Assembly (NCBI GenBank): GCA_965216215.1
Contig: CBDCFO010000008.1
Span: 1,750,726-1,814,725, forward strand
DNA: 64,000 nucleotides
DNA from: Bryobacterales bacterium
GTDB taxonomy: Bacteria; Acidobacteriota; Terriglobia; Bryobacterales; UBA6623
Reading direction: 5' to 3'
Position numbers and translations under genes: made by a program. Position 1 is the first letter of the stretch; every line of letters starts with the position of its first letter. Positions 1,846-22,310 of the stretch are shown piece by piece. The notes beneath the pieces are model-generated. The model saw only the letters and a program-made list of their open reading frames with translations. It searched no databases and had not been told where the DNA came from.

Positions 1846-3377
1846 GCGCTGTCAACACCCTGCATCTTTGGGAACAGATCCTTGAGCGCAGGATAGGCCT
1901 CGCGAAACGTCCGATATCCGTCCTGGTAGACGGATCGCAGCAACGGATCGGGATCTTCTCGGACCTGCTCGACGATCACATTCCGACAGGCTTCTTCGAC
2001 CGATCCGAACTCCCCTGTCCCGACCAGGGCCAAGAGCGCCGCGCCATAGGCCGATCCCTCCTGGGTTTGCAAGGTGGCGATCGGCTTGCCAAAGACGCCG
2101 GCGAGGATCCTCCGCCAGACCGCGGACTTCGCTCCGCCGCCGGACCCCCGCACGGCCGCGACCTCCGCCCCCAAGGACTCGATAATGCCGAGGCAGTCAT
2201 TGAGACTGTAGGCGACGCCCTCAAGAATCGACCGCACGAGGTGGGCCCGAGTATGCTTCGCTGTCAGGCCAACCCACCCGCCCCTGGCGAGAGGGTCCAG
2301 ATGCGGCGTCCGCTCGCCCATCAGGTAGGGAAGCCAGAACAGGCCTTCGGATCCCGGGGGAACTTCAGCCGCTTCGCGCGTCAGGATATCGTAGACGTCG
2401 GAGCCGCGTTCGGCGGCCTCCGCGGTAAGGTAGGTCGCAAGATTGTTGCGAAACCACTGCAAGCTCAGGCCCGCACCCTGCGTGACCCCCATCACGTGCC
2501 ACTTGCCGGGCACGGCGTGGCAAAACGTGTGCACCCGTCCCTCCGGGTCGTAGGCAGCCTCATCCAGATGCGAGAACACGACCCCGGATGTGCCGATCGT
2601 GCAGGAAACCAAGCCGGACTCGACAATCCCATTTCCCACGGCGCTGGCGGCTTGGTCGCCCGCTCCCCCAACCACAGGAGTGCCTTCCGCCAAACCGGTC
2701 TTCTCGGCGGCCACTGCTGACACCTTGCCTGTGAGTTCCGGCGATTCGACCACCTCCGGCAAGATCGAACCGTCGATTCCAAGGTTGTCGATCAATGGCG
2801 TCGCCCAGCGACGGCCGACAACGTCGAACAATGCCGTGCCCGAGGCATCCGAGACCTCGCTGACGTACTCACCGGTCAAGCAGAACCGAATGTAGTCCTT
2901 GGGAAGAAGCATCTTCCTGGTCCGCTCGTAGCTGGCCGGGTCGTGATCCCGAACCCATAGCAGCTTGGGCGCGGTGAACCCCGTCAGCACGGGGTTGGCA
3001 GTCTGCTCCAACACCGTCGCCGCGCCGGCCTTGGCGTTGATCCAGTCAACCTGCTCCTGGCTTCTCTGATCGCACCAGATCAGCGCGGGCCGAATGACAT
3101 CGTCCGAAGCGTCAAGCAAAGTGAGTCCATGCATCTGCCCGGACAGCCCGATGCCTGCGATCTCGTGGCCGCGCACGCCAGCCTTTGCCAACACCTCGCG
3201 AATCGCCTGGCATGCGGCCGACCACCAGTTCTCCGGACGCTGCTCGGCCCAAAGGGGGCGATGCATCAGAATGTCCTCGTGAGCCGCGGTCACTCCGCAG
3301 GCGACTGTTCCATCCGCTGTCACGAGCAGGGCCCGAGAGCCACCGGTGCCGATATCGATACCTAGCCAGTACTGCAT
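1842..3377 (-). CDS. xylB: Xylulokinase (FGGY carbohydrate kinase)
   Basis: MQYWLGIDIGTGG, GLSGQMHG, LIWCDQR, GGAGDQAA, YLMGERTPH. Start set at ATG 3377 behind a GGAGAG RBS; the longer ORF-track start overlaps plsC. Confidence 0.9.
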   Translation of the reverse strand: MQYWLGIDIGTGGSRALLVTADGTVACGVTAAHEDILMHRPLWAEQRPENWWSAACQAIREVLAKAGVRGHEIAGIGLSGQMHGLTLLDASDDVIRPALIWCDQRSQEQVDWINAKAGAATVLEQTANPVLTGFTAPKLLWVRDHDPASYERTRKMLLPKDYIRFCLTGEYVSEVSDASGTALFDVVGRRWATPLIDNLGIDGSILPEVVESPELTGKVSAVAAEKTGLAEGTPVVGGAGDQAASAVGNGIVESGLVSCTIGTSGVVFSHLDEAAYDPEGRVHTFCHAVPGKWHVMGVTQGAGLSLQWFRNNLATYLTAEAAERGSDVYDILTREAAEVPPGSEGLFWLPYLMGERTPHLDPLARGGWVGLTAKHTRAHLVRSILEGVAYSLNDCLGIIESLGAEVAAVRGSGGGAKSAVWRRILAGVFGKPIATLQTQEGSAYGAALLALVGTGEFGSVEEACRNVIVEQVREDPDPLLRSVYQDGYRTFREAYPALKDLFPKMQGVDSA

Positions 3378-3394
3378 GTTGTCTCTCCGTTGTG

Positions 3395-4147
3395 TCAAAG
3401 CGCCAAGGTGCCGCCAGGGTCTGTGGCGAGTTCCTCGATCGCGTGTCGCACGCGTTCTGTCAGCGCACTCGCGCTGATTCGGTTCGCTCCGCCAGTCGGA
3501 ATCGGCTCTCCGATGCGGATCTCCGCGACGCCTGGTCGCAAGTGAAGCGATCCCGGAGGCAGGATCCTGCGGGTGCCGGCAATGGCGACCGGCACGATTG
3601 GCACGCCCGCTTGATTGGCGATATGGGCTGCGCCGGTCTTGAACCGCCGAGTCGCATCGCCCCGGCGACGCCCGCCTTCCGGGAAAATTAAGATGGACCT
3701 GCCCTCGCGCACCTTGTCGGCGGCGTAGGCGATGTTCCGGGCCGCGATCCGTGGATTCGTGCGGTTGACTGGAAGATGTCCTGCGCGCCCCAAGTGCCAG
3801 CCAATGAACGGGATCTTCCAGAGGCCGGAACGGGCCAGGATCCGGAATGGCTGCGGCATGAGCCCAAACATTAGCGGCGTGTCGATCAAGCTGAAGTGGT
3901 TGGACGCGAAGACGTAAGGCTGCCCGGACTCCAGGCGCTCGCTCCCGGAAAGGCGCATTTCGACGAGAAAGACCGCCATCAGCATGCGCCCCCACCTGCG
4001 GGCGATTCTGTGCTGCATTTCGCCTCGGCTGTCGATTAGGGACGACAGGAGCGAGAGCAAGCCCATCACGCTAGTGATCAGCACGAGGAGCGGCACCATC
4101 CAGCAAACCGAGCGGATAGAGCTCAGAATCTCGCGGAACCAGCGCAA
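3395..4147 (-). CDS. plsC: 1-acyl-sn-glycerol-3-phosphate acyltransferase
   Basis: NHxSxxD (NHFSLID), FPEGGR and FKTGA motifs; N-terminal hydrophobic helix. Confidence 0.85.
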   Translation of the reverse strand: MRWFREILSSIRSVCWMVPLLVLITSVMGLLSLLSSLIDSRGEMQHRIARRWGRMLMAVFLVEMRLSGSERLESGQPYVFASNHFSLIDTPLMFGLMPQPFRILARSGLWKIPFIGWHLGRAGHLPVNRTNPRIAARNIAYAADKVREGRSILIFPEGGRRRGDATRRFKTGAAHIANQAGVPIVPVAIAGTRRILPPGSLHLRPGVAEIRIGEPIPTGGANRISASALTERVRHAIEELATDPGGTLAL

Positions 4148-4155
4148 GATCGATT

Positions 4156-5445
4156 TTAGCCGAGCAGGTCGCGGGCTTCTCCGACGAGGAACAGCGATCC
4201 GGTCACGACGATCCAGTCGCCGCTGCCCGAGCCGGCGTTCGCCATTCGGAGCGCAGCCTCGATGCCAGGTGCGGTTTCGATCCGCGAATGGTGATGGCCG
4301 GTAGCTTGCAATAGAATTCCGGGGGTTGCGGAGCGCTGCACTCTCGAGCGCGTCAGGACGACCCGGTCAGCGGCCGGAAACATCCAGCTGGCGATTTCGT
4401 CAACCGCCTTGTCCCGGGACGACCCGTAAATCAGGGTCACCTTGCGCCCATGTGCCTCGTGATCCAGAAACCTTGCCAGCGCTCGGGCGCCGTTCGGGTT
4501 GTGAGCGACGTCCAGCAGGACCCGGGGATCTCGTTTTGCAAATTCGAGCCGTCCCGGCCAGGTCGTCCGGCGCATGCCTGTCTCGATTGATTTCGAGGGA
4601 ATGCCGAGAGCGGTCAAGGCCGCGGTCGCCGTCAGCGCGTTCTCCATTTGGTGCTGGCCAGCGAGTGCCAAATCGATTTGAATCGATTCCGCTCCCTTGA
4701 CCGCAGCGAACCTCCAGCAGCCGCGTTCGCTCTTGGGATCACGGACCTGCCAATCGCTGCCAACATCAATGGTTTCGACGCCTGCGTTGGCACAGCACCG
4801 CAGGAGTACTCCACGCGCCTCCAGTGCCTGCGGTCCGATCACGGCGCGACATCCAGGCTTGACAATCGCCCCCTTCTCCGCGGCAATCCGATCCAAGCCG
4901 CGGCCAAGGTACTGCTCGTGGTCACAGCCGATGCGCGTCAGGACCGCCAGTTCAGGGAAAACGACATTGCTGGCGTCGAGGCGACCGCCGAGGCCTGTCT
5001 CCACAATCCGGTATTCAACCCTCGCCTGCGCAAAAAGCACCAGGCCGACCGCCGAAACCGATTCGAAGAATGTCGGATGGACGCCTCGGCCGTAGCGGGC
5101 CACAATTCGCTCGCTGGCCCGTCGGACCGGCTCGATGGCAGCCGCCAGTGCGTCGTTCGAGACCGGCTCCCCATTCAGCAAGAACCGCTCGTTGATGCGC
5201 GAAAGGTGGGGGGAAGTATACAGGCCGGTCGTGCGACCGGCCGCCCGCAGACCGCTCTCGATCATCGCCGCGGTCGATCCCTTGCCGTTCGTGCCGGCAA
5301 TGTGGATAATGCCGGCTGCCCGCTCGGGGTGGCCTACTTCGGCCATGAGTCTTTGCATTCGGTGCAGGCCGAAACTCTCCTTGCGGATCGATCCCAGCAA
5401 GGAGAACAGATAGTCGATGGAAGGGTTAGCGGGTTCCATCCGCAT
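4156..5445 (-). CDS. folC: Bifunctional folylpolyglutamate synthase/dihydrofolate synthase
   Basis: HIAGTNGKGST, YTSPHL, ETGLGGRLDASNV, WPGRLE, LDVAHNP; directly downstream of accD as in the common accD-folC operon. Confidence 0.93.
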   Translation of the reverse strand: MRMEPANPSIDYLFSLLGSIRKESFGLHRMQRLMAEVGHPERAAGIIHIAGTNGKGSTAAMIESGLRAAGRTTGLYTSPHLSRINERFLLNGEPVSNDALAAAIEPVRRASERIVARYGRGVHPTFFESVSAVGLVLFAQARVEYRIVETGLGGRLDASNVVFPELAVLTRIGCDHEQYLGRGLDRIAAEKGAIVKPGCRAVIGPQALEARGVLLRCCANAGVETIDVGSDWQVRDPKSERGCWRFAAVKGAESIQIDLALAGQHQMENALTATAALTALGIPSKSIETGMRRTTWPGRLEFAKRDPRVLLDVAHNPNGARALARFLDHEAHGRKVTLIYGSSRDKAVDEIASWMFPAADRVVLTRSRVQRSATPGILLQATGHHHSRIETAPGIEAALRMANAGSGSGDWIVVTGSLFLVGEARDLLG

Positions 5446-12421: not shown

Positions 12422-13768
12422 TCACTCGCCGTCCACGAAGTCTGCGAGCCTCGCCTGTATCTCGTCTTCCGGGAGCCAGCGGCCACGCACCATCACCCCC
12501 GCCCTGCGGGCCATGTTCGCCACGTCGTCGAGTGGACTGGCCTCCAGCAGGATGAGGTCTGCTCGCATGCCAATCGCCACTTGACCGAACTCCTCGCTTC
12601 CAAAGTGGTCAGCCGCGTTGCGAGTTGCGGATGCAAGGATCTCAAAGGGAGTCATGCCAGCCGATGCCATGATTGCCATCTCGCGATGGATCGAGAAACC
12701 AGGGACATTGAAAACCTGGGGAGCATCGGTGCCGAAAACGATTCGCACTCCGGCGTCTCGCAGTGCCCGAAGCACGCTCTTCCGTATCTCGATGACACGC
12801 CTGCCTGACTCGGGATTCAAGCGCCCGCGCCGGCTCGCCTGCGATTCGATCCATCCATTCACGGTCTCGCGTGGAAGATACTTCAGCTCCTCAAGCTCGG
12901 TGTATTCCTCGACCGGTACGTCGGCGTTGAATGTCTCCCACAATGCCATCGTGGGCACGACCGAGGCCCCCGCCAATTTCGTGGCCGCGGCCAAGGCGGG
13001 GATCTTTCGCTCGTCGGCGTGAAGACCCAACTCGCGGGAACGGGTCGACGGGTCAGCTTGCTCTATCGGCGAATCGTCGGCTTCGAGGGCCTCCAAGTAG
13101 TTGTCCAAGTGGTCGATGCTGCCCTGACCTGACGCCAAGGCATTCAGCAGGCCCACTGCGTTGGGGACATGCCCGCCGAACGGAATGCCCACCTGGCTTG
13201 CCTCGTCGGCAATTGCGTCATAGACATCAGCGCTGAGGCCCTCGAGGATTTTGAGCAGGTCGAAGCCGGCGTTCTTCTGCTCTCGAACCCGGGTGCGCGC
13301 CACCTCAATCGTCAGATCCGGCGTACCACGGAAGGCGGGGCCGGCCGCGTAAATGGTCGGACCCAATCGGTTGCCAGCCTCGATCTCCTGGCGCAGCTCA
13401 AGATGGAACGGACTGCCGAGCATGCCGCGCACCGTCGTAACACCGTTCGAGAGGAAGAGGTACAAAACGCGGTCCACCTCCTCAGGGGCTGTGTCTGGGC
13501 CCGGCAGGTGCCCGTGCATCTCGGCGAAGCCAGGCAGCAGGAACTTGCCTTGCCCGTCGATGACCAGGGAGCCCCGCGGAGCGCCGACTTCGCTGGAAGG
13601 GCCGATTCGGGCAATCCGCCCCTCCGAGACGATGACGGTCTGCGAATCCAGGACCCTCTCGTTGTCCATGGGTAGGACACTGACGTTTTCGAAGGCAACC
13701 GTACCCTCGGGAGCAACCTGGCAACCAAGCGCCAGAATGGCCGCCATGTATCCGATAACGTGTCTCAT
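12422..13768 (-). CDS. Amidohydrolase family protein, probable lipoprotein
   Basis: LPGFAEMHGH metal motif, GVTTVRGM, FGTDAP, ADLILL; N-terminal LALGC lipobox. Confidence 0.82.
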   Translation of the reverse strand: MRHVIGYMAAILALGCQVAPEGTVAFENVSVLPMDNERVLDSQTVIVSEGRIARIGPSSEVGAPRGSLVIDGQGKFLLPGFAEMHGHLPGPDTAPEEVDRVLYLFLSNGVTTVRGMLGSPFHLELRQEIEAGNRLGPTIYAAGPAFRGTPDLTIEVARTRVREQKNAGFDLLKILEGLSADVYDAIADEASQVGIPFGGHVPNAVGLLNALASGQGSIDHLDNYLEALEADDSPIEQADPSTRSRELGLHADERKIPALAAATKLAGASVVPTMALWETFNADVPVEEYTELEELKYLPRETVNGWIESQASRRGRLNPESGRRVIEIRKSVLRALRDAGVRIVFGTDAPQVFNVPGFSIHREMAIMASAGMTPFEILASATRNAADHFGSEEFGQVAIGMRADLILLEASPLDDVANMARRAGVMVRGRWLPEDEIQARLADFVDGE

Positions 13769-14190
13769 GCAGTACCTTGGCCTTGCTCGCGCGGGAAGCG
13801 CGGGAGCATTGCGATTGTAGCGCCGAAGGCCCCCAAGGCGAAGAGCTTGGTATCGGGCAGCCTCTGCGGCCCGACTGTCGGATCGGGGAATCAGGGATTC
13901 CGGACCCTACGTCGGAAGCTTGCTGACGCAAGGTCCGCTGCCTTCGAAGCGCTGCGCCTCTCGCCTTCCGGTTGATATCGGTCGGAGGCCGGGATGGAGC
14001 GTCAATACATCATCGAAGCCTGCTCCCCAATTGCGCTGGCCTCAGGCCAGCGAGGGAGCGGGGCGCGGGGCTGCGAAACCGCTCGCAACCACGCAATGAG
14101 GATTCGCTAGCATGGTTTCTTGGCTCGGCGGCGGCCGCCACCATGTCCGAGGGTCGGAACCTCGGCTTCAACTGTAGGCGCTAGATCTAC

Positions 14191-14571
14191 ATGAAACTCC
14201 TGCTTGCAGTTGCGCTTGGGGGCGCCTTCGGCGCATTGGCCCGGTTTCTGTCCACCGCCTGGTTCACACGCTCGCTGGGCTCGGCATTCCCGTACGGAAC
14301 GCTGTTTGTCAACGTAGCGGGATCCTTCGTTTTGGCCGTTATCGTCGAGTTCCTCGCCACCAAGTTCAGCGCCAGCACCGAGTTGCGGGCGTTCCTTGCG
14401 GTTGGCTTGCTGGGCTCTTTCACGACCTTCTCCAGCTTCTCGCTAGACGTTGCCGTGCTCTACGAGCGCGGTAATCTGCTGGCCGCGGGAGGCTACCTCG
14501 GGGCCAGCGTCACGCTTTCGATTCTTGCGCTGTTCTCAGGCCTGTGGATCGCAAGGGTTCTCTTGGTTTGA
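14191..14571 (+). CDS. crcB: Fluoride efflux channel FluC/CrcB
   Basis: GGAFGALARF, FPYGTLFVNVAGSF, GLLGSFTTFSSF; four hydrophobic helices. Confidence 0.95.
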   Translation: MKLLLAVALGGAFGALARFLSTAWFTRSLGSAFPYGTLFVNVAGSFVLAVIVEFLATKFSASTELRAFLAVGLLGSFTTFSSFSLDVAVLYERGNLLAAGGYLGASVTLSILALFSGLWIARVLLV

Positions 14572-14762
14572 GCGTCGAGCCCGTTGCTCCCGCCCTCCCG
14601 CCTGCGGTTCCGGGCGCCGAGGGGAAGGAATTTGCCATACGAGCAGCCGGACACAGCCCGGAGGCGTAAGGCGCGCAAGGCCGTGCCGGGAGACTCCCTG
14701 TCTCCGCAACGAGTGCCCCGAAACCGAAGAACCTCCGCCACGCTTTCCGAGACTCGCGGATC

Positions 14763-15242
14763 TCAATCTTCCGGTTCTTGGAAATTGTCGACCATATAGC
14801 TGTAGTAGGGTCCTCGCAGGAAGCCGAGGAAAATTTCGTTGACGAGCTTGAGCCCCTTGCTCACGGCGTAGTCCCAGTCGCCATCGAGGCTCTCGAGCGC
14901 GACGGACACATCGCCTTTGCGGTTCCTGCTGCGAACCTTGATCCGCTCCGGATCGATTCGGCGGTAAGTCGGAAGATCGGCGGATGTGCGCCCCCTCAGG
15001 AACTTCCGCAGATCCTTGTAGAGCGTCGAACCCAGCTCTAGATTCGGTAGCAGGCCGCGAAACTCCAGTGTCTTGCGTCGCGGGTCAAATACGAGTCGTG
15101 TCGGCTGCCCGCGCAGCCATACAAAGGAGCAGTCCAGCCTTCCGCGAATGCGGATGGATTCGAAAGACTGGAAGACCCCCCTGTCAGCACGGCTTCGAAG
15201 GAGGGCATCGACGGCGTCCGCGGGAGCGCACGAATCCCTCAT
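14763..15242 (-). CDS. Hypothetical protein (159 aa) translationally coupled to the ThDP enzyme
   Basis: Its ATG (15242-15240) overlaps the upstream TGA (TGATG); globular composition; no family recognised. Confidence 0.65.
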   Translation of the reverse strand: MRDSCAPADAVDALLRSRADRGVFQSFESIRIRGRLDCSFVWLRGQPTRLVFDPRRKTLEFRGLLPNLELGSTLYKDLRKFLRGRTSADLPTYRRIDPERIKVRSRNRKGDVSVALESLDGDWDYAVSKGLKLVNEIFLGFLRGPYYSYMVDNFQEPED

Positions 15243-17188
15243 CAGTGGTAGTACGCCATGCATCCAGGCTCGACTTTCTGCAGGAGTCCGGGCGAGTAGT
15301 CGCGCGCGCTCCAAAACTCCTTGATAGCCTGGCAATTGATGACGGTCGAGACACCCTCGGCTGCCGCAATCTCGTAGCTGCGCTGAAGCGCGGGCGCGAA
15401 ATCCTCCGCCTTGGTCACGTACTCGCCCCGCGCTCCGAGTGCCTCGCCGATCTTCTCGTAGCGCAGGTTCTCCTGAAAGAGGTACATGTGCTGGGCGCGC
15501 GCCGCGCCGCTACGACCCCCGCTCTCACCGCTGCGCCACACACCCCAAGCATTGTTGTTGTAGACCACGATCACCGCAGGAATGCGGTACTTACTGAGCG
15601 TCTCGACTTCCATGCCGGAATAAGCGAAGCCCGCGTCGCCAGTGACGGCAAGAACTGGCGCACCCTTGTAAGGCGCCTGCGGGCCGATTCCCTGCTGAAC
15701 TGCCGCGCCCACGCCAACCGTGTATCCGATGTCCGGCCCGATGGCACCGTATTGGTAGGCGCCATTGCAAATCTGGCCGGGTCGGAAGGCACGCATCCTG
15801 CGGCGGGTGTAGCGCGCGATGCCATAGCCGCCCGAGACGACCGTAGTCTGCTCCCTAGGCACCTTGCCGTTGTAGAGCAAGTCGCCGATTCCCTTCGCGA
15901 TCACTGCCGGATGGACGCAAGACGCTTGCTCGCTGTACTTGAGCCCCAAGCGATAGTGCTCGTCGTTTTCGGCCTCAAAGGCCGCTCGCGCAGCCGCGAG
16001 CTCGTCCCGCCATGCCGGGCGCTTCTTCGGGGGCAAGGCTTCCGCCAGCGCCTCCAAGGCCGCTCGCTCGCAGCTCACGATACCCAGTTCGATCGGAAGA
16101 TTGCGTCCAATGTCAGCAGCGTCCGGATCAATTCGAATATAAGGTACGTCAGGGTCAAAGGAGTATTCGCCGATAGACGGCATACAGTACTGGCCCACCA
16201 GCACGACAAGATCGGCGCTCAGAAGCGCCCCCGGCGCGGTGTTGGCCGAAAGGGGATGATCGTCCGCAAAGTGCCCGCGGCTGGGACCCGACTCCACGAC
16301 AGCGATGTCAGCCTTCTCTGCGGCAGTCTTCAGCGCGTTCCAGGCCTTGCTGTAGAACACTCCCGTGCTGGCAACTATGATCGGCCGCTCCGCCCTCGCG
16401 ATGAGGGCAACAGCCCTGGCAATCTCCTTGGCCGAAGGATGCGGCCTCGAGTCAGTGCGGTATTTCGACTTGTCATGGAAGTACCGCAAGTCCTCCGCGC
16501 TCTCGAACCGCCTGCGCGCGACTTCGCCGGGGAAATCAAGATGCACCGGGCGGGGGACTCCGCTCTTGAGCTGCCGGAAAGCATAGCCTGCGTACTCATG
16601 AACCCGCTCCGGGTTGATGAGCCGCTTTCCATACTTCTTCATGCCGATCGTCGTGGGCTGCTGGTAGACGCGTTGGATCCCTTGCTCGGTGTCCTCCAGC
16701 GCGAGCGTCATGTTGCTCGCGAGCACCAACAGCGGCGAACGCGCCGCGTTGGCCGCACCGATGTTCATGATCATGTTCGTGAAACCCGGGCCCTCTGTCC
16801 CAGACGCCGCAACAATCTCGCCAGTGACACGAGCGAAGCCATCGGCTGCCGAACACATCATCCCTTCGGTGCGGCCGCCGTAACACGGTATGCCCTCCGA
16901 AGCGATCGCATTGATCACGGAGTAGTTCCCGGGGGCGCAAAACAGCGCGGCAAGTCCCTCCCCTTTACATGCCCTGGCGAAGACCTGGGCGCCCGTCATG
17001 GGGAAGTCAGCGGGATTGGGTGCCTCTGCCAGGCTGGCCGGCACTTCGTCCGGGACCCTGATGTTCGAGTCGTGGAGTTCCGTGGTGGACGCCTTCGCAC
17101 CGGCAGCCACGGCGGCGGCGACCGCGCCCCGGGTCACGAACTTGCGCCGCGAGACCGCGCTCGCGTTGTCGTCTCGATCACTTGCCAT
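15242..17188 (-). CDS. Thiamine-diphosphate-dependent enzyme (2-hydroxyacyl-CoA lyase/oxalyl-CoA decarboxylase/ALS superfamily) with Tat-like leader
   Basis: ThDP motif [15 protein letters not shown]...VYNNNAWG; conserved Glu region [14 protein letters not shown]; GPGFTN; N-terminal SRRKFV plus Ala-rich helix. Confidence 0.85.
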
Positions 17189-17222
17189 CGTCAGTCTCCC
17201 TTAGATATCTTCGGCCGCGAGG

Positions 17223-17684
17223 CTAAGGCGTATCAGCCCGCAACCGCTCGGGGCCGATACTGCGCACAAACAGCACCAACTTCCAGATCGCCGTCTCGTC
17301 CAGCTGCTTGCCGAATGCCGGCATTTCATGTCCCGCACCATCCCGGATTGAGACAAAAATTTCGCCGTCCGAAATCCCATAGCGCCACTCGGCGGGATCA
17401 CGCAAGCTAGGTGCCTCGAAGTCGGGATTCGCTTGGGCCCGCCCGTCTGCGCCGTGGCAGTACTGGCACAGCCGCAGGTAGGTCTTCCGCGCATCCCGGA
17501 CGGCATCCGCGGTGTGCGGAACGGGGTTCTTTAGCTCGCGCGCCTTCCCGGCCCGGTCTGGCCCGTCCGCCGCGAGCGCCCAGCAGGCCCCAAGGGACGC
17601 AACCACGACCATTCGCGAGCCCCTCCGCGCGGCTTGGAGGATCCGGGACGCAACGGTTCCGGTTGCTAGCGAACTGGGGCACAT
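17223..17684 (-). CDS. Exported monoheme cytochrome c (start uncertain)
   Basis: CQYCHG heme motif, LKNPVP, SDGEIF, distal EMPAF; signal peptide ending WALAA. Confidence 0.8.
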   Translation of the reverse strand: MCPSSLATGTVASRILQAARRGSRMVVVASLGACWALAADGPDRAGKARELKNPVPHTADAVRDARKTYLRLCQYCHGADGRAQANPDFEAPSLRDPAEWRYGISDGEIFVSIRDGAGHEMPAFGKQLDETAIWKLVLFVRSIGPERLRADTP

Positions 17685-17794
17685 GCGCCGTCTGCCTGAC
17701 CTAAGACCGGGCTCGGCGACGATTCCGTCTCGCGAGGCCGGCACAGACAGGATAGACCAGCAACGCCAGGGCTGCCAAACCACCGAATGCCCCA

Positions 17795-17836
17795 AACAAA
17801 CAAAAAGAAGCCGAACACGGTCTCGCGTTCGGCTTC
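17795..17836 (-). terminator. Rho-independent terminator
   Basis: Perfect 10-bp stem GAAGCCGAAC/GTTCGGCTTC (17807-17816 and 17827-17836) followed on the minus strand by TTTTTGTTTGTTT. Confidence 0.85.
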
Positions 17837-17932
17837 GGCTATTGACCTAAAAGGTGCCGGAGGGGCTTTCAGGGGTCTTTGGTTGAGGATTGTTTTCTTA
17901 CGTTGGTGGGGTGTTTATTCCCCCCCGGCACT
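17800..17932 (-). ncRNA. Candidate stand-alone small RNA (~130 nt)
   Basis: Bounded by a consensus promoter and an intrinsic terminator; closing stem GUGCCGG/CCGGCAC, hairpin GGGG-AAUAAACA-CCCC, A/C-rich unpaired core; no usable ORF. Confidence 0.6.
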
Positions 17933-17937
17933 CATAT

Positions 17938-17966
17938 ACAATACTAGACACCATAGTCTTTGGCAA
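17938..17966 (-). promoter_or_regulatory. sigma70-type promoter with AT-rich UP-like tract upstream
   Basis: TTGCCA (17966-17961), 17-nt spacer, TATTGT (17943-17938); AT-rich tract 17967-18000 in a GC-rich genome. Confidence 0.75.
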
Positions 17967-18098
17967 GCAAAATCTACAAATTTCTGTATATTTTTTCTTG
18001 CAAGCGTCTAAGAGTCACGTTAACTCATTGTGTTTCAATCACTTGCGATCGGAAAAATGGAGTCATTAACAACACCGTCTGAATTCGTAATATGGAAT

Positions 18099-18877
18099 TC
18101 AGCCCATTGCAAGGGCCACTGGACGAATCGGAGAGCCCGTCCCGCCTTGGATCCGCAACGGAGCGGCTGCAAAGATGAACTCGCTCGCGCAAGACGCTGC
18201 GAGCGCTTCGAGATTCAGTGCCTCGATGATATGGATCCCGCTCTCCACGAGCAGATGCACATGCACTGGCATGGACGGCGCTGGCATGAATTCAAAGGCG
18301 ATCGTGTCCGAGCCGCCCGCGAGCACGTTCCTGGAACTCAGCCAGCCGACCGCCTCGCGGTTGATCCCGGGACAGTGCAGGTCATTGATGAACCGCCGCG
18401 GCTGCTGCCAGTAGAGTGCCCAGCCGGTGCGTACGAGGACGACATCACCTGCCCTCGCCTCGACGCCGGCCCGCTCGGGGCGCGCTGCAAGCACTCCGCG
18501 TCCACCACGAAGTCCGCGGGCAGCACGTCAAATCCCTCGCTGGCCGCAACGTCAAGCAGAACTCCGCGTCGGAAGATGGGATCGATCGTGTCGGCATGAT
18601 GCTCGCCGACGCCCGAAGCGTACGACTGGCAGCCGCCGGCATCGGCGCCGCCGAAGAGCTTGCCTCGGAACGAAATATGCGTGCCAACGTGACCGCCGAG
18701 AGCGATCGACTCAGCGGCAGCGCTCGATCCCCGGAACGAGTGATCGCCGTGGGCCTTGGTCAAGCCGTAGAGGAACGGCGGGTGACTGGGATGATGCGGC
18801 ATGCCGACGAAATAGGGCTGTGCCAAGTCAATTGTCCGGGCCTCTTCGACATGGCGCAGGAAGTCTTCGATGCCCAT
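18099..18877 (-). pseudogene. Cyclase/kynurenine formamidase family gene, frameshifted
   Basis: N-half (DLAQPY, HVGTH, RRGVLLDVA) and C-half (GDVVLVRTGW, GSDT, GIHIIEALNL, GGTGSPIRP) lie in different frames, switching near 18475-18485; the DAxxH part of HxGTHxDAxxH is missing. Confidence 0.75.
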
Positions 18878-19014
18878 TGCAGGGCATTCTAACCGGTTCC
18901 GGGTCATCGGGGGTCGAGCGCCGGGTCCTCGGGAGGTTGTGATATTCTCGAAACAGTTCGACGGCGTGTAGGCGGCTCGGCTTCGAAACGTAAGTGCCGA
19001 CCACCGCATCATCC

Positions 19015-19755
19015 ATGAATTGCAGTTTCAGCGGCCTCCCGGTCCCAACGGATAAGCTGTTCGTCCTCTACTACCCGCCAGCGGCGGCCCACGAAACGTG
19101 GGACCGTTCGTTCTTCGCTGCGGCGCGCGCGCGCGAGGCGCTGGCGGCGATCGTAGACGAACTCGAGCACTTCTTCCGCCGGTACGTGATCACCGGAAAG
19201 CTAGCCGCCGGCATTGCGGCTTGCTTGCTCGGCATTGCCCTCGGCGCGTACTGGGGAATCTCCGCATGGTCGGATTGGGACGCAATGGGCTCCGCGAGCC
19301 GCTACGGCCTGCCACTGCTTGCGCTTGCCAGCCTGCTTTTCGGACGCTCACGAGTGCGGGCATTCCTGCATCGCTGGAAAGTGTGGCGGGACGAATGCCG
19401 GGAGACGGTCGACAACGAACTCGCCGCGATGCGGCGCGTGATGGAAGGCATACCGACGGATCCGGACGCCGAGGAGGCCGCGGCCATCATGCGCCGCGAG
19501 TGCCCGGACATGGTATCGGCAATTGCGTTTTACGGAACGAACTTCAACGCCTTCACCTACATGGACTTCATCTTGAGCCCGAAGCTGAAGCACCCTTCAG
19601 AGCGCAAGGACCTGCCCGCGCAACACAGCCCGTACCGTGATGCCTACTACGTGGGAGACGTCGTCTACGACAACTGGCGCATGTTCAACAAGGACCACAG
19701 GACCCTTGCCGATCCGCGCTTCGTAGGCAGCCGCGGCCGCCGGGGCGTGATCTAG
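19015..19755 (+). CDS. Hypothetical membrane protein (two TM segments)
   Basis: 246-aa ORF divergent from the cyclase gene; hydrophobic hairpin; host-like codon usage. Confidence 0.6.
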   Translation: MNCSFSGLPVPTDKLFVLYYPPAAAHETWDRSFFAAARAREALAAIVDELEHFFRRYVITGKLAAGIAACLLGIALGAYWGISAWSDWDAMGSASRYGLPLLALASLLFGRSRVRAFLHRWKVWRDECRETVDNELAAMRRVMEGIPTDPDAEEAAAIMRRECPDMVSAIAFYGTNFNAFTYMDFILSPKLKHPSERKDLPAQHSPYRDAYYVGDVVYDNWRMFNKDHRTLADPRFVGSRGRRGVI

Positions 19756-20918
19756 CGGATCGCTTCGCGCAGCGATACCAATGGGTGCTCGCGATCACGA
19801 AGCGGAAAGTCAAGCACGCTGCGCTTCAGCTGCGAGCCGTACACACCCTGGGTCATCTCGACCGTCCAACGCCCGGCCCGCTCGCTGCATGCCGGCTCCC
19901 TGCCCGTCTCGATCGAATCGAGCAAGTCCTCCACCATCAGTGCATTCGCAGTCAGGTGGCGATGATCGCCGAAGCTGCGGTGCTCAGGTTCGATTCGCTC
20001 CCAAGCAACATCCCCGGACGGCACCCATGCAGGGGTCCGCAGGACAAAGGCCCTCGCCTCCCGACTGTAGATCTCGTTGGGCAGAAAGATCCTGCCTTTG
20101 GCACCGTAGATATCGGTGCCGAAGCGCCAGGGATGGGTAGCGCTGGACTGCTTCGAACCGAAGAAACCATGGCGCCCCTCGCCGAACGAGAACATTGCAG
20201 CCATTTGGCGACCGGCGATCGGGCCTATCGGCTCGCTGGGAGTACCTAGGTGGCCGGGGCCAAGCTCCTCACCCTCGGACGTGATGTGGGCGAAGACCCA
20301 CTCCGGATCGCCAAGCACCGCACGCATCATGTCGAAGATATGCGAGCCCAGGACTACCAGGTCCTCACCTCCGGCACGCCGGTCCTCCTTGCCTCGCCCG
20401 CGGACTTCATGGATTTCGCCGATCTCGCCGGCGTCGATCATCTGCAGCGCCTTGAGCGTGAACGGTGACGTCCGCATTTGGTGGGCCACTTGCACTTTGA
20501 CGCCCGCTCTGCGGATCGCATCGACCATCAGATCAGCCTCCGGCAGGGTCATCGCAAATGGCTTCTCGACGTACATGTGGCAGCCCGCTTTCGCCGCGGC
20601 CGCTACCATGTCCAGCCGTTGGTCCGGGTGGCGGGGACAGATACTGACGATGTCAGGCTTCTCCGTCGCGAGCAGTTCGTGGTAGTCGGCGTAAGCCCGC
20701 GCCGCCCGCGTGCGTTCCTTGGCCTCGGCTCGACCCTCCTCGTCAGGATCGGCGACAGCCACGACCTCCGCCTGAGGGAAGGCAGCCCAGACATCGCCGA
20801 TTCCATGGCCGAAATTGCCGCGCCCGGTATGGCCTATCACTCCCACCCGGTACCGCGGCGCGGCGCGAGAAGGGAGTGCCACGGCTGCGGAGGCCAGCAG
20901 AAAGCGCCTGCGTCGCAT
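19752..20918 (-). CDS. Gfo/Idh/MocA family oxidoreductase with Tat signal
   Basis: MRRRRFLL twin-arginine leader; GVIGHTGRG Rossmann motif; HMYVEKPFA. Confidence 0.88.
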   Translation of the reverse strand: MRRRRFLLASAAVALPSRAAPRYRVGVIGHTGRGNFGHGIGDVWAAFPQAEVVAVADPDEEGRAEAKERTRAARAYADYHELLATEKPDIVSICPRHPDQRLDMVAAAAKAGCHMYVEKPFAMTLPEADLMVDAIRRAGVKVQVAHQMRTSPFTLKALQMIDAGEIGEIHEVRGRGKEDRRAGGEDLVVLGSHIFDMMRAVLGDPEWVFAHITSEGEELGPGHLGTPSEPIGPIAGRQMAAMFSFGEGRHGFFGSKQSSATHPWRFGTDIYGAKGRIFLPNEIYSREARAFVLRTPAWVPSGDVAWERIEPEHRSFGDHRHLTANALMVEDLLDSIETGREPACSERAGRWTVEMTQGVYGSQLKRSVLDFPLRDREHPLVSLREAIR

Positions 20919-20959
20919 CTCTGACTTATGCTCGCCGCCGGCCTGCGAGGCTCATCGGA

Positions 20960-21403
20960 TCACTCGGAGGGATGGACCACGTCCTGGCCCCCGGCCTTCC
21001 AGCCCTCGATCCCACCGAACTGGATCTCGGCGTCGTAGCCGTTGTCTCGAAGTATGGCCGCCGCACGGGAGGCCCTTCCGCCGCGCCGTCAATACGCAAC
21101 GATCGGCTTGTCCCTGGGCACCTCCGCCAAGCGTGCTTCCAACGCATCGATCGGAATATGCGTGTAGCCCTCAATCGCGCCGTCTTGAACGAGCTCTTCA
21201 GGCGTGCGCACGTCCAAGAGGAAGATGTCCTCGCCCGCGGCCAAGCGAGCGGCGACGCCCTCCACATCGAGCTCTGTCGGCTCCGCCGGCGCGATGACTG
21301 CGGCCTCTGGCTCGGCAACGCTGCCTTCTTCGGGCGCGTCCGAGCAACCGAGCGATCCGCAGGCGACAGCCAGGGAAATGCCCATCCAAGGAATTGGTCT
21401 CAT
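20960..21403 (-). CDS. Rhodanese-like lipoprotein, probable selenoprotein (in-frame TGA at 21091-21089 = Sec at the catalytic position), 147 aa
   Basis: LLDVRTPEE...THIP...DKPIVAY-TGA-RRGGRASRAAAILRDNGY...GGIEGWKAGG; the frame stays open to TGA 20962-20960; lipobox SLGC. Confidence 0.8.
21056..21074 (-). promoter_or_regulatory. Candidate bacterial SECIS hairpin
   Basis: GGCC-U-CC-[CGUGC]-GG-C-GGCC, 15-33 nt after the UGA, with a G near the start of the loop; hand-folded only. Confidence 0.3.
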
Positions 21404-21416
21404 ACATTGCCTCCTG

Positions 21417-22310
21417 CTAGGCGTTCCAACCGAGGGTCGACGCTTCCGGAATTCTCCGGATCAGGTCCGAGAGTTCAATCTGGTTTTCTGCTCCGATCGT
21501 GAAGCAATCGATGCAGTCGAGCGCCATGGCGTGCTGCAGGGCCTCGCTGACCCGGTCCCGCATGACACCCTCTCCCAGGATCTTCATGCCGATCACGCCC
21601 TTGCCCGCAGCCTTGATCTTGCAGAGTTCTTCCACGACGGTCGCAGGATCGGCATCCATGCGAGCGCCGATCGGGTTGATCCTCGCCAGATCAACATCAA
21701 TGAACTCCTGGCGATGCACTTGCCTCAGGGCCGGGAGAGAGTGGCAAGAAATCCCGCGTGACCTGACGATCCCCTTCTGCTTGTACTCGTCAACCACTTC
21801 CATCGCGCCCTGCCGCTGGACAGGCCAGTCTTCTTCACGCACGGCGTGTAGCAACAGCAAGTCGATGTAGTCCGTGCCCAGCTCCCGGCGGAAGCGATCA
21901 ATATCCTCGCGCATCCCCTTGGCTGTCTTGGATACCGACTTGGTCATGATGACAACCCGTTCCCGGGGAATGTGCTGCAGCGCGCTCTTCAGATGGGGGT
22001 GGCTGCCGTACATGTCCGCCGTGTCCCAGAAGGTCAAGCCATTGTCGAAGCCGTACCGATAGAGATCCGTAAGCCCGCCAACACCGAGCTTGCGCGTCTG
22101 GTTGGAGGCGCCTCGGAAGCCCTTGGTCCCTGTCCCCATGGCAAGCCTCGATACCGGCAACTTGTCCGGACCCAGCGTCACGGCATCGTAGGCGAACCGG
22201 CGAGCGGGATTCTCGGTATATCCGTCCGAAGCTCCGAACAGCTGCTGCTGGACGGCTGCAATCGATGTCCCTGCGAGCAGGGTGTGGCGGATGAAATCGC
22301 GTCGCTTCAT
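21417..22310 (-). CDS. Aldo/keto reductase with Tat signal
   Basis: MKRRDFIR leader; SRLAMGT, FWDTADMYG, LGTDYIDLLLLH, GVIGMKILG. Confidence 0.88.
   Translation of the reverse strand: MKRRDFIRHTLLAGTSIAAVQQQLFGASDGYTENPARRFAYDAVTLGPDKLPVSRLAMGTGTKGFRGASNQTRKLGVGGLTDLYRYGFDNGLTFWDTADMYGSHPHLKSALQHIPRERVVIMTKSVSKTAKGMREDIDRFRRELGTDYIDLLLLHAVREEDWPVQRQGAMEVVDEYKQKGIVRSRGISCHSLPALRQVHRQEFIDVDLARINPIGARMDADPATVVEELCKIKAAGKGVIGMKILGEGVMRDRVSEALQHAMALDCIDCFTIGAENQIELSDLIRRIPEASTLGWNA

Follow-up and report, generated by a model that had tools for sequence, protein, structure and literature searches.

Organization and Conservation of the Three-Gene Unit

The window analyzed is a stretch of 64,000 nucleotides from the genome of a Bryobacterales bacterium (contig CBDCFO010000008.1), and it contains three co-directional genes on its minus strand that encode, in this order, a monohaem c-type cytochrome, a thiamine diphosphate (ThDP)-dependent enzyme with a twin-arginine leader, and a small protein of 159 residues. 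The cytochrome gene (17223..17684) encodes 153 residues with a CQYCH haem site. Its stop codon ends at 17223 and the ATG of the enzyme gene (15242..17188; 648 residues) lies at 17188, leaving a gap of 34 nt in which a GGGAG ribosome-binding site was located 8 nt ahead of the ATG. The third gene (14763..15242) encodes the small protein, which is without a signal peptide, and its ATG has one base in common with the TGA of the enzyme gene, so that the two are translationally coupled in the window through a TGATG overlap. These three reading frames, with their coordinates, gap and overlap, had been given correctly in the initial annotation of the window, which was made from the nucleotide sequence. 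The three genes are described here as encoding a candidate periplasmic oxidising system that would combine a ThDP enzyme with its own cytochrome and partner protein.

Relatives of the enzyme were sought among prokaryotic genomes at one genome per species, which gave 219 stretches, and the best 80 loci were analyzed. All 80 were from metagenome-assembled genomes (MAGs) and belonged to the Acidobacteriota (Bryobacterales, Thermoanaerobaculia/'Multivorans', Holophagales, Vicinamibacteria and Terriglobia), the Gammaproteobacteria (Pseudohongiella and the OM182 group), the Gemmatimonadota and the Sumerlaeota; the isolate names of several MAGs resemble those given to bins of sponge and coral symbionts. 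A cytochrome c homologue was found within 5 kb of the enzyme gene in 76 loci, nearly always directly upstream. The small-protein gene was detected by profile in 72 of the 80 loci, or 72 of the 74 in which the downstream DNA suffices: in six of the eight loci lacking the gene the sequence stops a few hundred bases or less from the enzyme gene, and in the two true exceptions it is present elsewhere in the same genome, once beside a second copy of the enzyme gene. The arrangement of the trio, found in approximately 72 of 80 loci from several phyla, is not due to chance. Beyond the trio, no neighbouring gene was conserved outside close relatives.

Co-occurrence at the genome level was tested in 401 evenly sampled Acidobacteriota genomes. 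The enzyme was present in 21 of these, from 12 of 228 genera, giving a patchy distribution, and the profile of the small protein matched the same 21 genomes together with one in which a frameshifted enzyme gene adjoins. Where a genome gave two enzyme matches the small protein was also twofold in four cases out of five; in the fifth the second enzyme match was partial and there was one small gene. The pairwise distances of the three proteins were correlated over 65 loci (Spearman r 0.82–0.90, Mantel p 0.001), figures that are inflated by the kinship of the loci, and the correlation would fit inheritance and transfer of the trio as a single unit. The small protein has changed at about double the rate of the enzyme (mean pairwise distances of 0.53 and 0.24, respectively). 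The synteny that the initial annotation had proposed to examine is thus present, as linkage in most of the 80 loci and as co-divergence of the three proteins.

Irregular arrangements were seen in single loci. In L021/L088, from a Bryobacterales MAG, approximately 2.5 kb lies between the enzyme gene and the small gene (L021:6947-9976), and the small gene is immediately preceded by a 46-residue copy of the enzyme C-terminus, which points to an insertion or rearrangement; a search for the cytochrome gene within 5 kb gave none. In L091 (G110:C1:3522000-3534000) the order is enzyme, small gene, cytochrome, and the possibly broken enzyme gene is in two frames, split near residue 340, which may be a sequencing error. 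The same may apply to L045, where an in-frame stop near position 5070 interrupts the conserved FPMNGA/VFA region of the enzyme.

The ThDP-Dependent Enzyme

The Pfam domains TPP_enzyme_N, TPP_enzyme_M and TPP_enzyme_C were matched by the enzyme with 72.9, 77.0 and 68.2 bits, all above their cut-offs, which upholds its earlier assignment to the ThDP superfamily. The closest solved structures, by sequence as well as fold, were those of HACL/HACS, oxalyl-CoA decarboxylases (Oxc), benzaldehyde lyase (BAL)/formolase and BbmA (PDB ids. 2q27, 2c31, 8vza, 7pt1, 2ag0 and 8x3x). These have the same three-domain ThDP fold, with Foldseek template modelling (TM) scores of 0.79–0.84 (target-normalised) at 21–26% identity and profile E-values of 1e-58 to 1e-43. 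When 1.8 billion cluster representatives were searched exhaustively and without a profile, full-length family members were recovered with 43–60% identity or more, beyond which the identity falls to 33% or less and the matches are generic ThDP enzymes. By its sequence the enzyme is a discrete offshoot within the Oxc/HACL/BAL clade.

None of the NCBIfam equivalog cut-offs was reached by the enzyme. The best match, PRK05858, gave 190 bits against a cut-off of 587, and the Oxc equivalogs NF006721 (165.8 bits, cut-off 557) and TIGR03254 (154.2 bits, cut-off 739.4) failed together with the HACL equivalog NF058623 (140.2 bits, cut-off 600). This wide miss would fit a chemistry that differs from that of the CoA-dependent enzymes, in agreement with the earlier suggestion that the enzyme may not act as HACL or Oxc do. 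CoA thioesters, the substrates of those enzymes, are not expected in the periplasm.

The ThDP/Mg motif is intact (G517-D518-A-G ... N544-N545-N546) and aligned with the GDS...NNN of Oxc, and E108 aligned with the cofactor-activating glutamate of BAL, E50. The columns of the GDAG..NNN motif and of the activating glutamate are invariant or nearly so across the family. The pair N88-Y89, invariant in the family, is aligned to A28-H29 of BAL and to Ile-Pro of Oxc. As H29 is a known catalytic residue of BAL, a position used in catalysis is occupied in this family by a polar pair of its own. The middle domain has the DDHPLSA motif in common with Oxc and HACL, with ASTG in place of the LGKG of Oxc and a shorter GQYCMP loop in place of GARLNW; the lysine of LGKG, an ADP-binding residue in Oxc, is at a position occupied here by threonine. 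The NNN motif is followed by a longer loop and then by a distinct C-terminal tail that does not align with the relatives. A model of the monomer was obtained with a mean predicted local distance difference test (pLDDT) of 78.3 and a predicted TM score (pTM) of 0.83, in which residues 1–43, 163–187, 338–341, 548–572 and 624–648 were disordered. Compared with Oxc, HACL and BAL, the enzyme thus adds the unaligned tail, a twin-arginine leader and two associated proteins, the obligate small partner and the cytochrome c of the linked gene.

Twin-Arginine Leader and Predicted Export

Residues 13–18 of the precursor are SRRKFV, followed by an Ala/Gly-rich hydrophobic stretch and A-K-A; from the sequence, the leader for twin-arginine translocation (Tat) spans residues 1–33 (17090..17188). 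The first ThDP Pfam domain begins at residue 64, giving an N-terminal extension of 63 residues, of which residues 1–43 had a pLDDT under 50 in the monomer model. An S/T-R-R-x-F-[VLI] motif, an A/G-rich h-region and an AxA-type site were present in all 80 homologous loci, with an n-region that varies freely. Since the leader is conserved at the protein level it must be translated and under selection, and a start downstream of the RR motif is excluded, so that the twin-arginine leader of the initial annotation stands. The host genome encodes TatC (194 bits, above the cut-off). Tat export of a ThDP-loaded, folded and probably oligomeric enzyme is well supported by these sequence features.

The reverse view would hold that the RR motif is not a working signal, and that the enzyme remains in the cytoplasm or is anchored to the membrane by an uncleaved leader. 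Some twin-arginine leaders do stay uncleaved as membrane anchors. This view is nevertheless highly improbable, because the motif, h-region and AxA site are kept in homologues from different phyla while their flanks vary, because the linked partner is an exported cytochrome c, and because the cytoplasmic ThDP paralogues of the same genome are without a comparable N-terminal extension. The initial annotation had named three findings that would speak against it, a downstream start, a cytoplasmic enzyme or a lack of co-conservation of the three genes, and none of these was encountered.

The Monohaem Cytochrome c

The cytochrome matched the Pfam families PF13442 (Cytochrome_CBB3, 45.5 bits, cut-off 27) and PF00034 (Cytochrom_C, 27.9 bits, cut-off 21.3). 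It has a signal peptide ending in ALA/ADG and a conserved (E/D)MPxF region containing the methionine ligand. The homologues likewise have Sec-type signal peptides, a CxxCH motif and a conserved (E/D)MPxF. The LGAC sequence of the window resembles a lipobox, and a lipoprotein cytochrome was considered and rejected, as most homologues lack a cysteine at this position. Genes for cytochrome c maturation and for a haem-copper oxidase are present in the host genome.

Fold of the Small Protein and Its Predicted Complex with the Enzyme

The 159-residue protein gave no Pfam or NCBIfam match at an E-value of 0.01 or better, and the same scan showed neither a TorD/DmsD nor a NapD domain. A model built from an alignment of 36 homologues had a pLDDT of 92.4 and a pTM of 0.87, with the elements arranged as a helix, four strands, a helix, two strands and two helices. 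The model was compared with 48,161 PDB representatives using VIA-align. The top rows were type III class I chaperones and YbjN-like proteins, with Z values of 7–8.7 over 98–124 aligned residues, and included DR_1245 (4h5b), 2plg, SycN-YscB (1xkp), InvB (2fm8), SigE, Spa15, the AvrPphF chaperone, SicP, AmyR (5fr7) and SycH. The Z values are middling and the rows mutually consistent, at a structural-alignment identity of 5–13%. Foldseek gave no match at an E-value of 0.001 or better; its best match was the type III secretion chaperone ExsC, at an E-value of 6e-3 and TM scores of 0.49–0.55. A language-model atlas pointed independently to DUF2299 clusters with a score of 0.94. The small protein is therefore modelled as an alpha-beta sandwich with a secretion-chaperone-like fold, a likeness that holds at the level of the fold and does not extend to sequence membership or function. 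It differs from the type III chaperones and YbjN proteins in having no detectable sequence relation to them, and in that its partner is an enzyme with a Tat leader instead of a type III effector.

The complex of the full precursor with the small protein was predicted with a separate alignment for each chain. The complex score, which expresses the confidence of the model, was 0.72 (0.72, 0.72 and 0.76 in three runs) against 0.00 for the best control. In the calibration of the predictor, 58 of 80 solved complexes and 2 of 110 mismatched pairs attained this mark, counts that apply approximately as the chains here had their own alignments. Binding between the two proteins, for which the initial annotation had suggested complex modelling, is thus predicted. 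The runs had at least 91% of their contacts in common and the pLDDT of the partner was at least 86. We know of no solved complex of this kind, and recall of a known structure by the predictor is therefore unlikely. The predicted contacts on the enzyme, at residues 268, 323–347, 365, 396, 550–559 and 628–638, fall in middle-domain loops, in the post-NNN loop and in the C-terminal tail, and none was reported for the leader. The small protein is accordingly predicted to bind the folded body of the enzyme and not its leader. The contact segments of the enzyme are largely those with low confidence in the monomer model (338–341, 548–572 and 624–648). On the small protein the predicted interface covers residues 18–25, 42–44, 91–94 and 128–148, with contacts in the invariant A19-R21-G22-F24 region, at H93-R94 and in the F138-Y149 helix, and the interface residues show a higher conservation (0.70) than the remaining residues (0.54; p 0.0015). 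In Oxc-type relatives the C-terminal tail closes over the active site, and the small protein may thus sit near the substrate entrance of the enzyme.

Two roles were considered for the small protein. In the first it would be a stable small subunit without a signal of its own that is co-exported with the Tat-leader enzyme by hitchhiking, and that shapes the active-site lid or the docking site of the cytochrome. The predicted contacts with the middle domain, the post-NNN loop and the C-terminal tail instead of the leader argue for such a subunit, as do the conserved interface residues, the one-to-one co-occurrence with the enzyme, with copy numbers that agree in most genomes, and the translational coupling in the window. 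The twofold faster evolution of the small protein speaks against it, together with a fold that is otherwise that of cytoplasmic secretion chaperones; a search for longer proteins with the small protein as a fused part gave none, which is weak evidence in the same direction. A subunit role is given a little less than an even chance.

The second role, that of a cytoplasmic export or assembly chaperone specific for the enzyme and released before transport, similar in role to TorD, is rated just short of evenly balanced. Before ThDP is loaded, such a chaperone would hold the cofactor-dependent loops and the C-terminal lid in place; alternatively, it would maintain the enzyme in an inactive state. 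The gene order is that of torCAD, and the fold matches to type III class I chaperones and YbjN, the faster divergence, and the contacts to segments that are disordered in the monomer, including the loop beside the ThDP motif, are all consistent with a chaperone. Set against this are the missing sequence relation to known Tat chaperone families, with no Pfam match, and the fact that contact with the signal peptide was not predicted. A common fold also does not establish a common function.

Proposed Mechanism

The proposed sequence of events begins in the cytoplasm, where the 648-residue precursor would fold and load ThDP and Mg2+, as the intact motifs suggest. It would then associate with the 159-residue partner through the middle-domain loops, the post-NNN loop and the C-terminal tail, in the predicted arrangement, the partner being either a small subunit that is exported with the enzyme or an export and assembly chaperone that stays in the cytoplasm, like TorD in torCAD. 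The folded enzyme would be exported by Tat, as indicated by the leader in every homologue and TatC in the genome. In the periplasm, by analogy with the superfamily, ThDP would attack a small carbonyl compound, either a 2-oxo acid or an aldehyde/alpha-hydroxyketone, to form a ThDP-bound carbanion/enamine. Two electrons would then pass one by one to the Sec-exported monohaem cytochrome c, a step suggested by gene linkage alone. The cytochrome would feed the respiratory chain, in which the electrons would reach the terminal oxidase, and the acyl-ThDP would be hydrolysed to an acid. The partnership of enzyme, partner and cytochrome is well supported; the electron transfer and the type of substrate are inferred. 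A periplasmic ThDP-dependent oxidising system with its own cytochrome c and partner protein is, overall, considered to have an even chance of being correct.

One-electron acceptors such as ferricyanide are classically known to oxidise ThDP enamines, and in some Gammaproteobacteria a pyrroloquinoline quinone (PQQ) dehydrogenase is encoded directly upstream of the trio, which sets the module among periplasmic dehydrogenases and favours an oxidative role. Several observations weigh against this role. The sequence gives no sign of a redox cofactor able to link ThDP to haem, and the family alignment has no conserved cluster of cysteines able to hold an iron-sulfur (Fe-S) center. The closest relatives are the non-flavin Oxc, HACL and BAL enzymes, with the flavin-dependent relatives more distant, and the middle domain of the enzyme has ASTG in place of the GGG of flavin-binding relatives and acetolactate synthases. 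We know of no characterized precedent for a direct transfer from ThDP to haem. The interface with the small protein is not more conserved on the enzyme side than the rest of the enzyme. In the PQQ-linked loci the cytochrome could also serve the quinoprotein instead of the ThDP enzyme.

Neighbouring Oxidation Systems

The PQQ dehydrogenases are found directly upstream and on the same strand in approximately eight gammaproteobacterial loci, only a few bases away in L076. They are soluble enzymes of the glucose/quinate/shikimate type without a membrane anchor, and are located at approximately 2180-4480, upstream of the cytochrome gene, in L064, L066, L075, L076, L077 and L085. These loci resemble a four-gene operon, often with a TonB-dependent receptor ahead; L064 and L066 have a second PQQ dehydrogenase downstream, and in L084 the PQQ gene is directly upstream of the enzyme gene. 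In 12 gammaproteobacterial loci a gene for a molybdoenzyme of the xanthine dehydrogenase (XDH)/aldehyde-oxidase family is present downstream in convergent orientation. Such neighbours associate the module with the periplasmic oxidation of alcohols and aldehydes without naming a substrate. The possible clues to a substrate (the PQQ dehydrogenase, the XDH-family molybdoenzyme, penicillin amidase and FG-GAP proteins) are each confined to one lineage. The host genome of the window (6.67 Mb, 96% complete) gave 31 PQQ-dehydrogenase matches on contigs C3-C8, corresponding to approximately 18 genes for PQQ-dependent dehydrogenases. This is an unusually large set and points to a heavy reliance on periplasmic oxidation.

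The main rival to the oxidising system is an exported ThDP lyase or carboligase without redox activity, which would act on the products of periplasmic dehydrogenases by cleaving alpha-hydroxyketones or 1,2-diketones or by condensing aldehydes, with the cytochrome serving those dehydrogenases, for example the PQQ enzymes. The size of the PQQ set in the host and the PQQ genes adjoining the gammaproteobacterial loci and L084 are what this alternative would lead one to expect. The nearest relatives (HACL/HACS, Oxc, benzaldehyde lyase, formolase and the synthase BbmA) are all non-oxidative, N88-Y89 are aligned with the catalytic position of a lyase, and there is no flavin or Fe-S signature. However, the cytochrome gene heads the unit in most lineages, mostly with no PQQ gene nearby, and the cytochrome co-diverges with the enzyme. 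The non-redox enzyme is accordingly regarded as rather unlikely.

A second ThDP enzyme with a Tat motif, apparently unrelated to the first, was observed in the same genome (contig C8:836582-838399, minus strand; L092:7580-9400). It is 25% identical to the enzyme studied here, has an LSRRGLF motif, and lies directly upstream of a PQQ dehydrogenase (L092:5349-7247) that bears its own TRRTFLK leader. All 13 homologues carry the RR motif, and a survey of 301 Acidobacteriota genomes found the family in 12. A conserved link of this family to PQQ was considered and rejected, because none of the 13 homologous loci has a PQQ gene within 1.5 kb; no cytochrome or small partner was found within this distance either. 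With a second RR-bearing family, exported ThDP enzymes may comprise more than one family.

Upstream Region and Flanking Genes

A consensus scan identified a sigma-70-like candidate promoter of the operon, TTGGCA N18 TATCCT, at 17749..17778 on the minus strand, which is kept in 12 related loci. A conserved unit of uncertain link to the operon lies just ahead of the cytochrome gene at 17800..17966, also on the minus strand, and consists of a promoter-like site, a structured RNA candidate and a terminator. It starts with a sigma-70-like promoter, TTGCCA N17 TATTGT, at 17966-17938. The RNA candidate of approximately 130 nt has a 12-bp closing helix (GUGCCGGGGGGG/CCCCUCCGGCAC) enclosing a C/A-rich loop of 54 nt that carries CCUC and ACCCC motifs, with a fold z of -4.68, and the unit ends in a strong 13-bp intrinsic terminator with a T-run at 17836-17807. 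The unit is present once in the genome. Its core hardly varies across 12 Bryobacterales loci; the terminator stems vary in sequence and the hairpin is kept. An Rfam scan of 13500-19500 (E-value up to 1) gave only a sub-threshold snoRNA-like match at 19408-19462 and, ahead of the operon, neither a TPP riboswitch nor any other known RNA. The unit could represent either a small RNA or an operon leader.

The genes for a putative cyclase, a GFO/IDH/MocA oxidoreductase and an aldo/keto reductase lie upstream on the minus strand (18338-22310), and those for a CrcB fluoride channel, an amidohydrolase and an epoxide hydrolase lie downstream (12422-14571). These flanking genes are kept only in approximately 12 close relatives, and have no evident link to the trio.

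Relation to Known Systems

The torCAD operon for trimethylamine N-oxide reductase of E. coli has the same order of a c-type cytochrome, a twin-arginine enzyme that has to be loaded with its cofactor ahead of export, and a signal-less small protein specific for the enzyme. The cofactor in the present system would be ThDP instead of molybdopterin, and electrons would flow from the enzyme to the cytochrome, whereas in torCAD the enzyme receives them from a membrane-anchored cytochrome. The small protein also lacks the TorD/DmsD or NapD domains and has a secretion-chaperone-like fold instead. Soluble periplasmic enzymes that are found beside their own small c-type cytochrome include the PQQ alcohol dehydrogenases with cytochrome c550/cL, NicA2 with CycN, and SorAB; the cofactors of these are PQQ, flavin or molybdenum, and not ThDP.

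Pyruvate oxidase, PoxB ('pyruvate dehydrogenase [cytochrome]') and pyruvate:ferredoxin oxidoreductase oxidise a ThDP enamine with an external electron acceptor, as is proposed for the present enzyme. In contrast to the enzyme proposed here, they are cytoplasmic or on the cytoplasmic face of the membrane and relay the electrons through flavin adenine dinucleotide or Fe-S clusters. The relation is distant, with E-values of 3e-6 for PoxB and 6e-6 for pyruvate oxidase over the C-terminal domain, and 1e-5 for pyruvate oxidase over the middle domain.

The superfamily, the export route and the type of electron partner are each known, and their combination is undescribed in the literature that was found. 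A full-text literature search gave no relevant description of an exported or periplasmic ThDP enzyme. To our knowledge, ThDP enzymes are regarded as residents of the cytoplasm or of organelles, and lists of the cofactors of Tat substrates do not include ThDP. A bolder proposal is that ThDP constitutes a new class of Tat-carried cofactor and that electrons pass directly from enamine to haem without flavin or Fe-S, in a 'ThDP dehydrogenase (cytochrome c)' whose partner reuses a type III chaperone fold, and which would allow bacteria of soil, marine and sponge-associated habitats to respire small 2-oxo acids or aldehydes without importing them. This proposal is tentative, and its chances are put at clearly less than even.

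An exported ThDP family would revise both the view of these enzymes as cytoplasmic or organellar and the list of Tat cofactors. As a conserved and widespread family it would bring the cleavage or formation of carbonyl C-C bonds to the periplasm and would give respiratory chains a new point of electron entry. If the cytochrome is the direct acceptor, the enzyme would be the first haem-coupled ThDP enzyme without a flavin or Fe-S relay. The three small genes form a compact target for heterologous expression. With the module present in approximately 5% of the sampled Acidobacteriota, in oligotrophic marine Gammaproteobacteria and in MAGs with names suggestive of sponge and coral symbionts, the family may have a part in turning over small dissolved carbonyl compounds.

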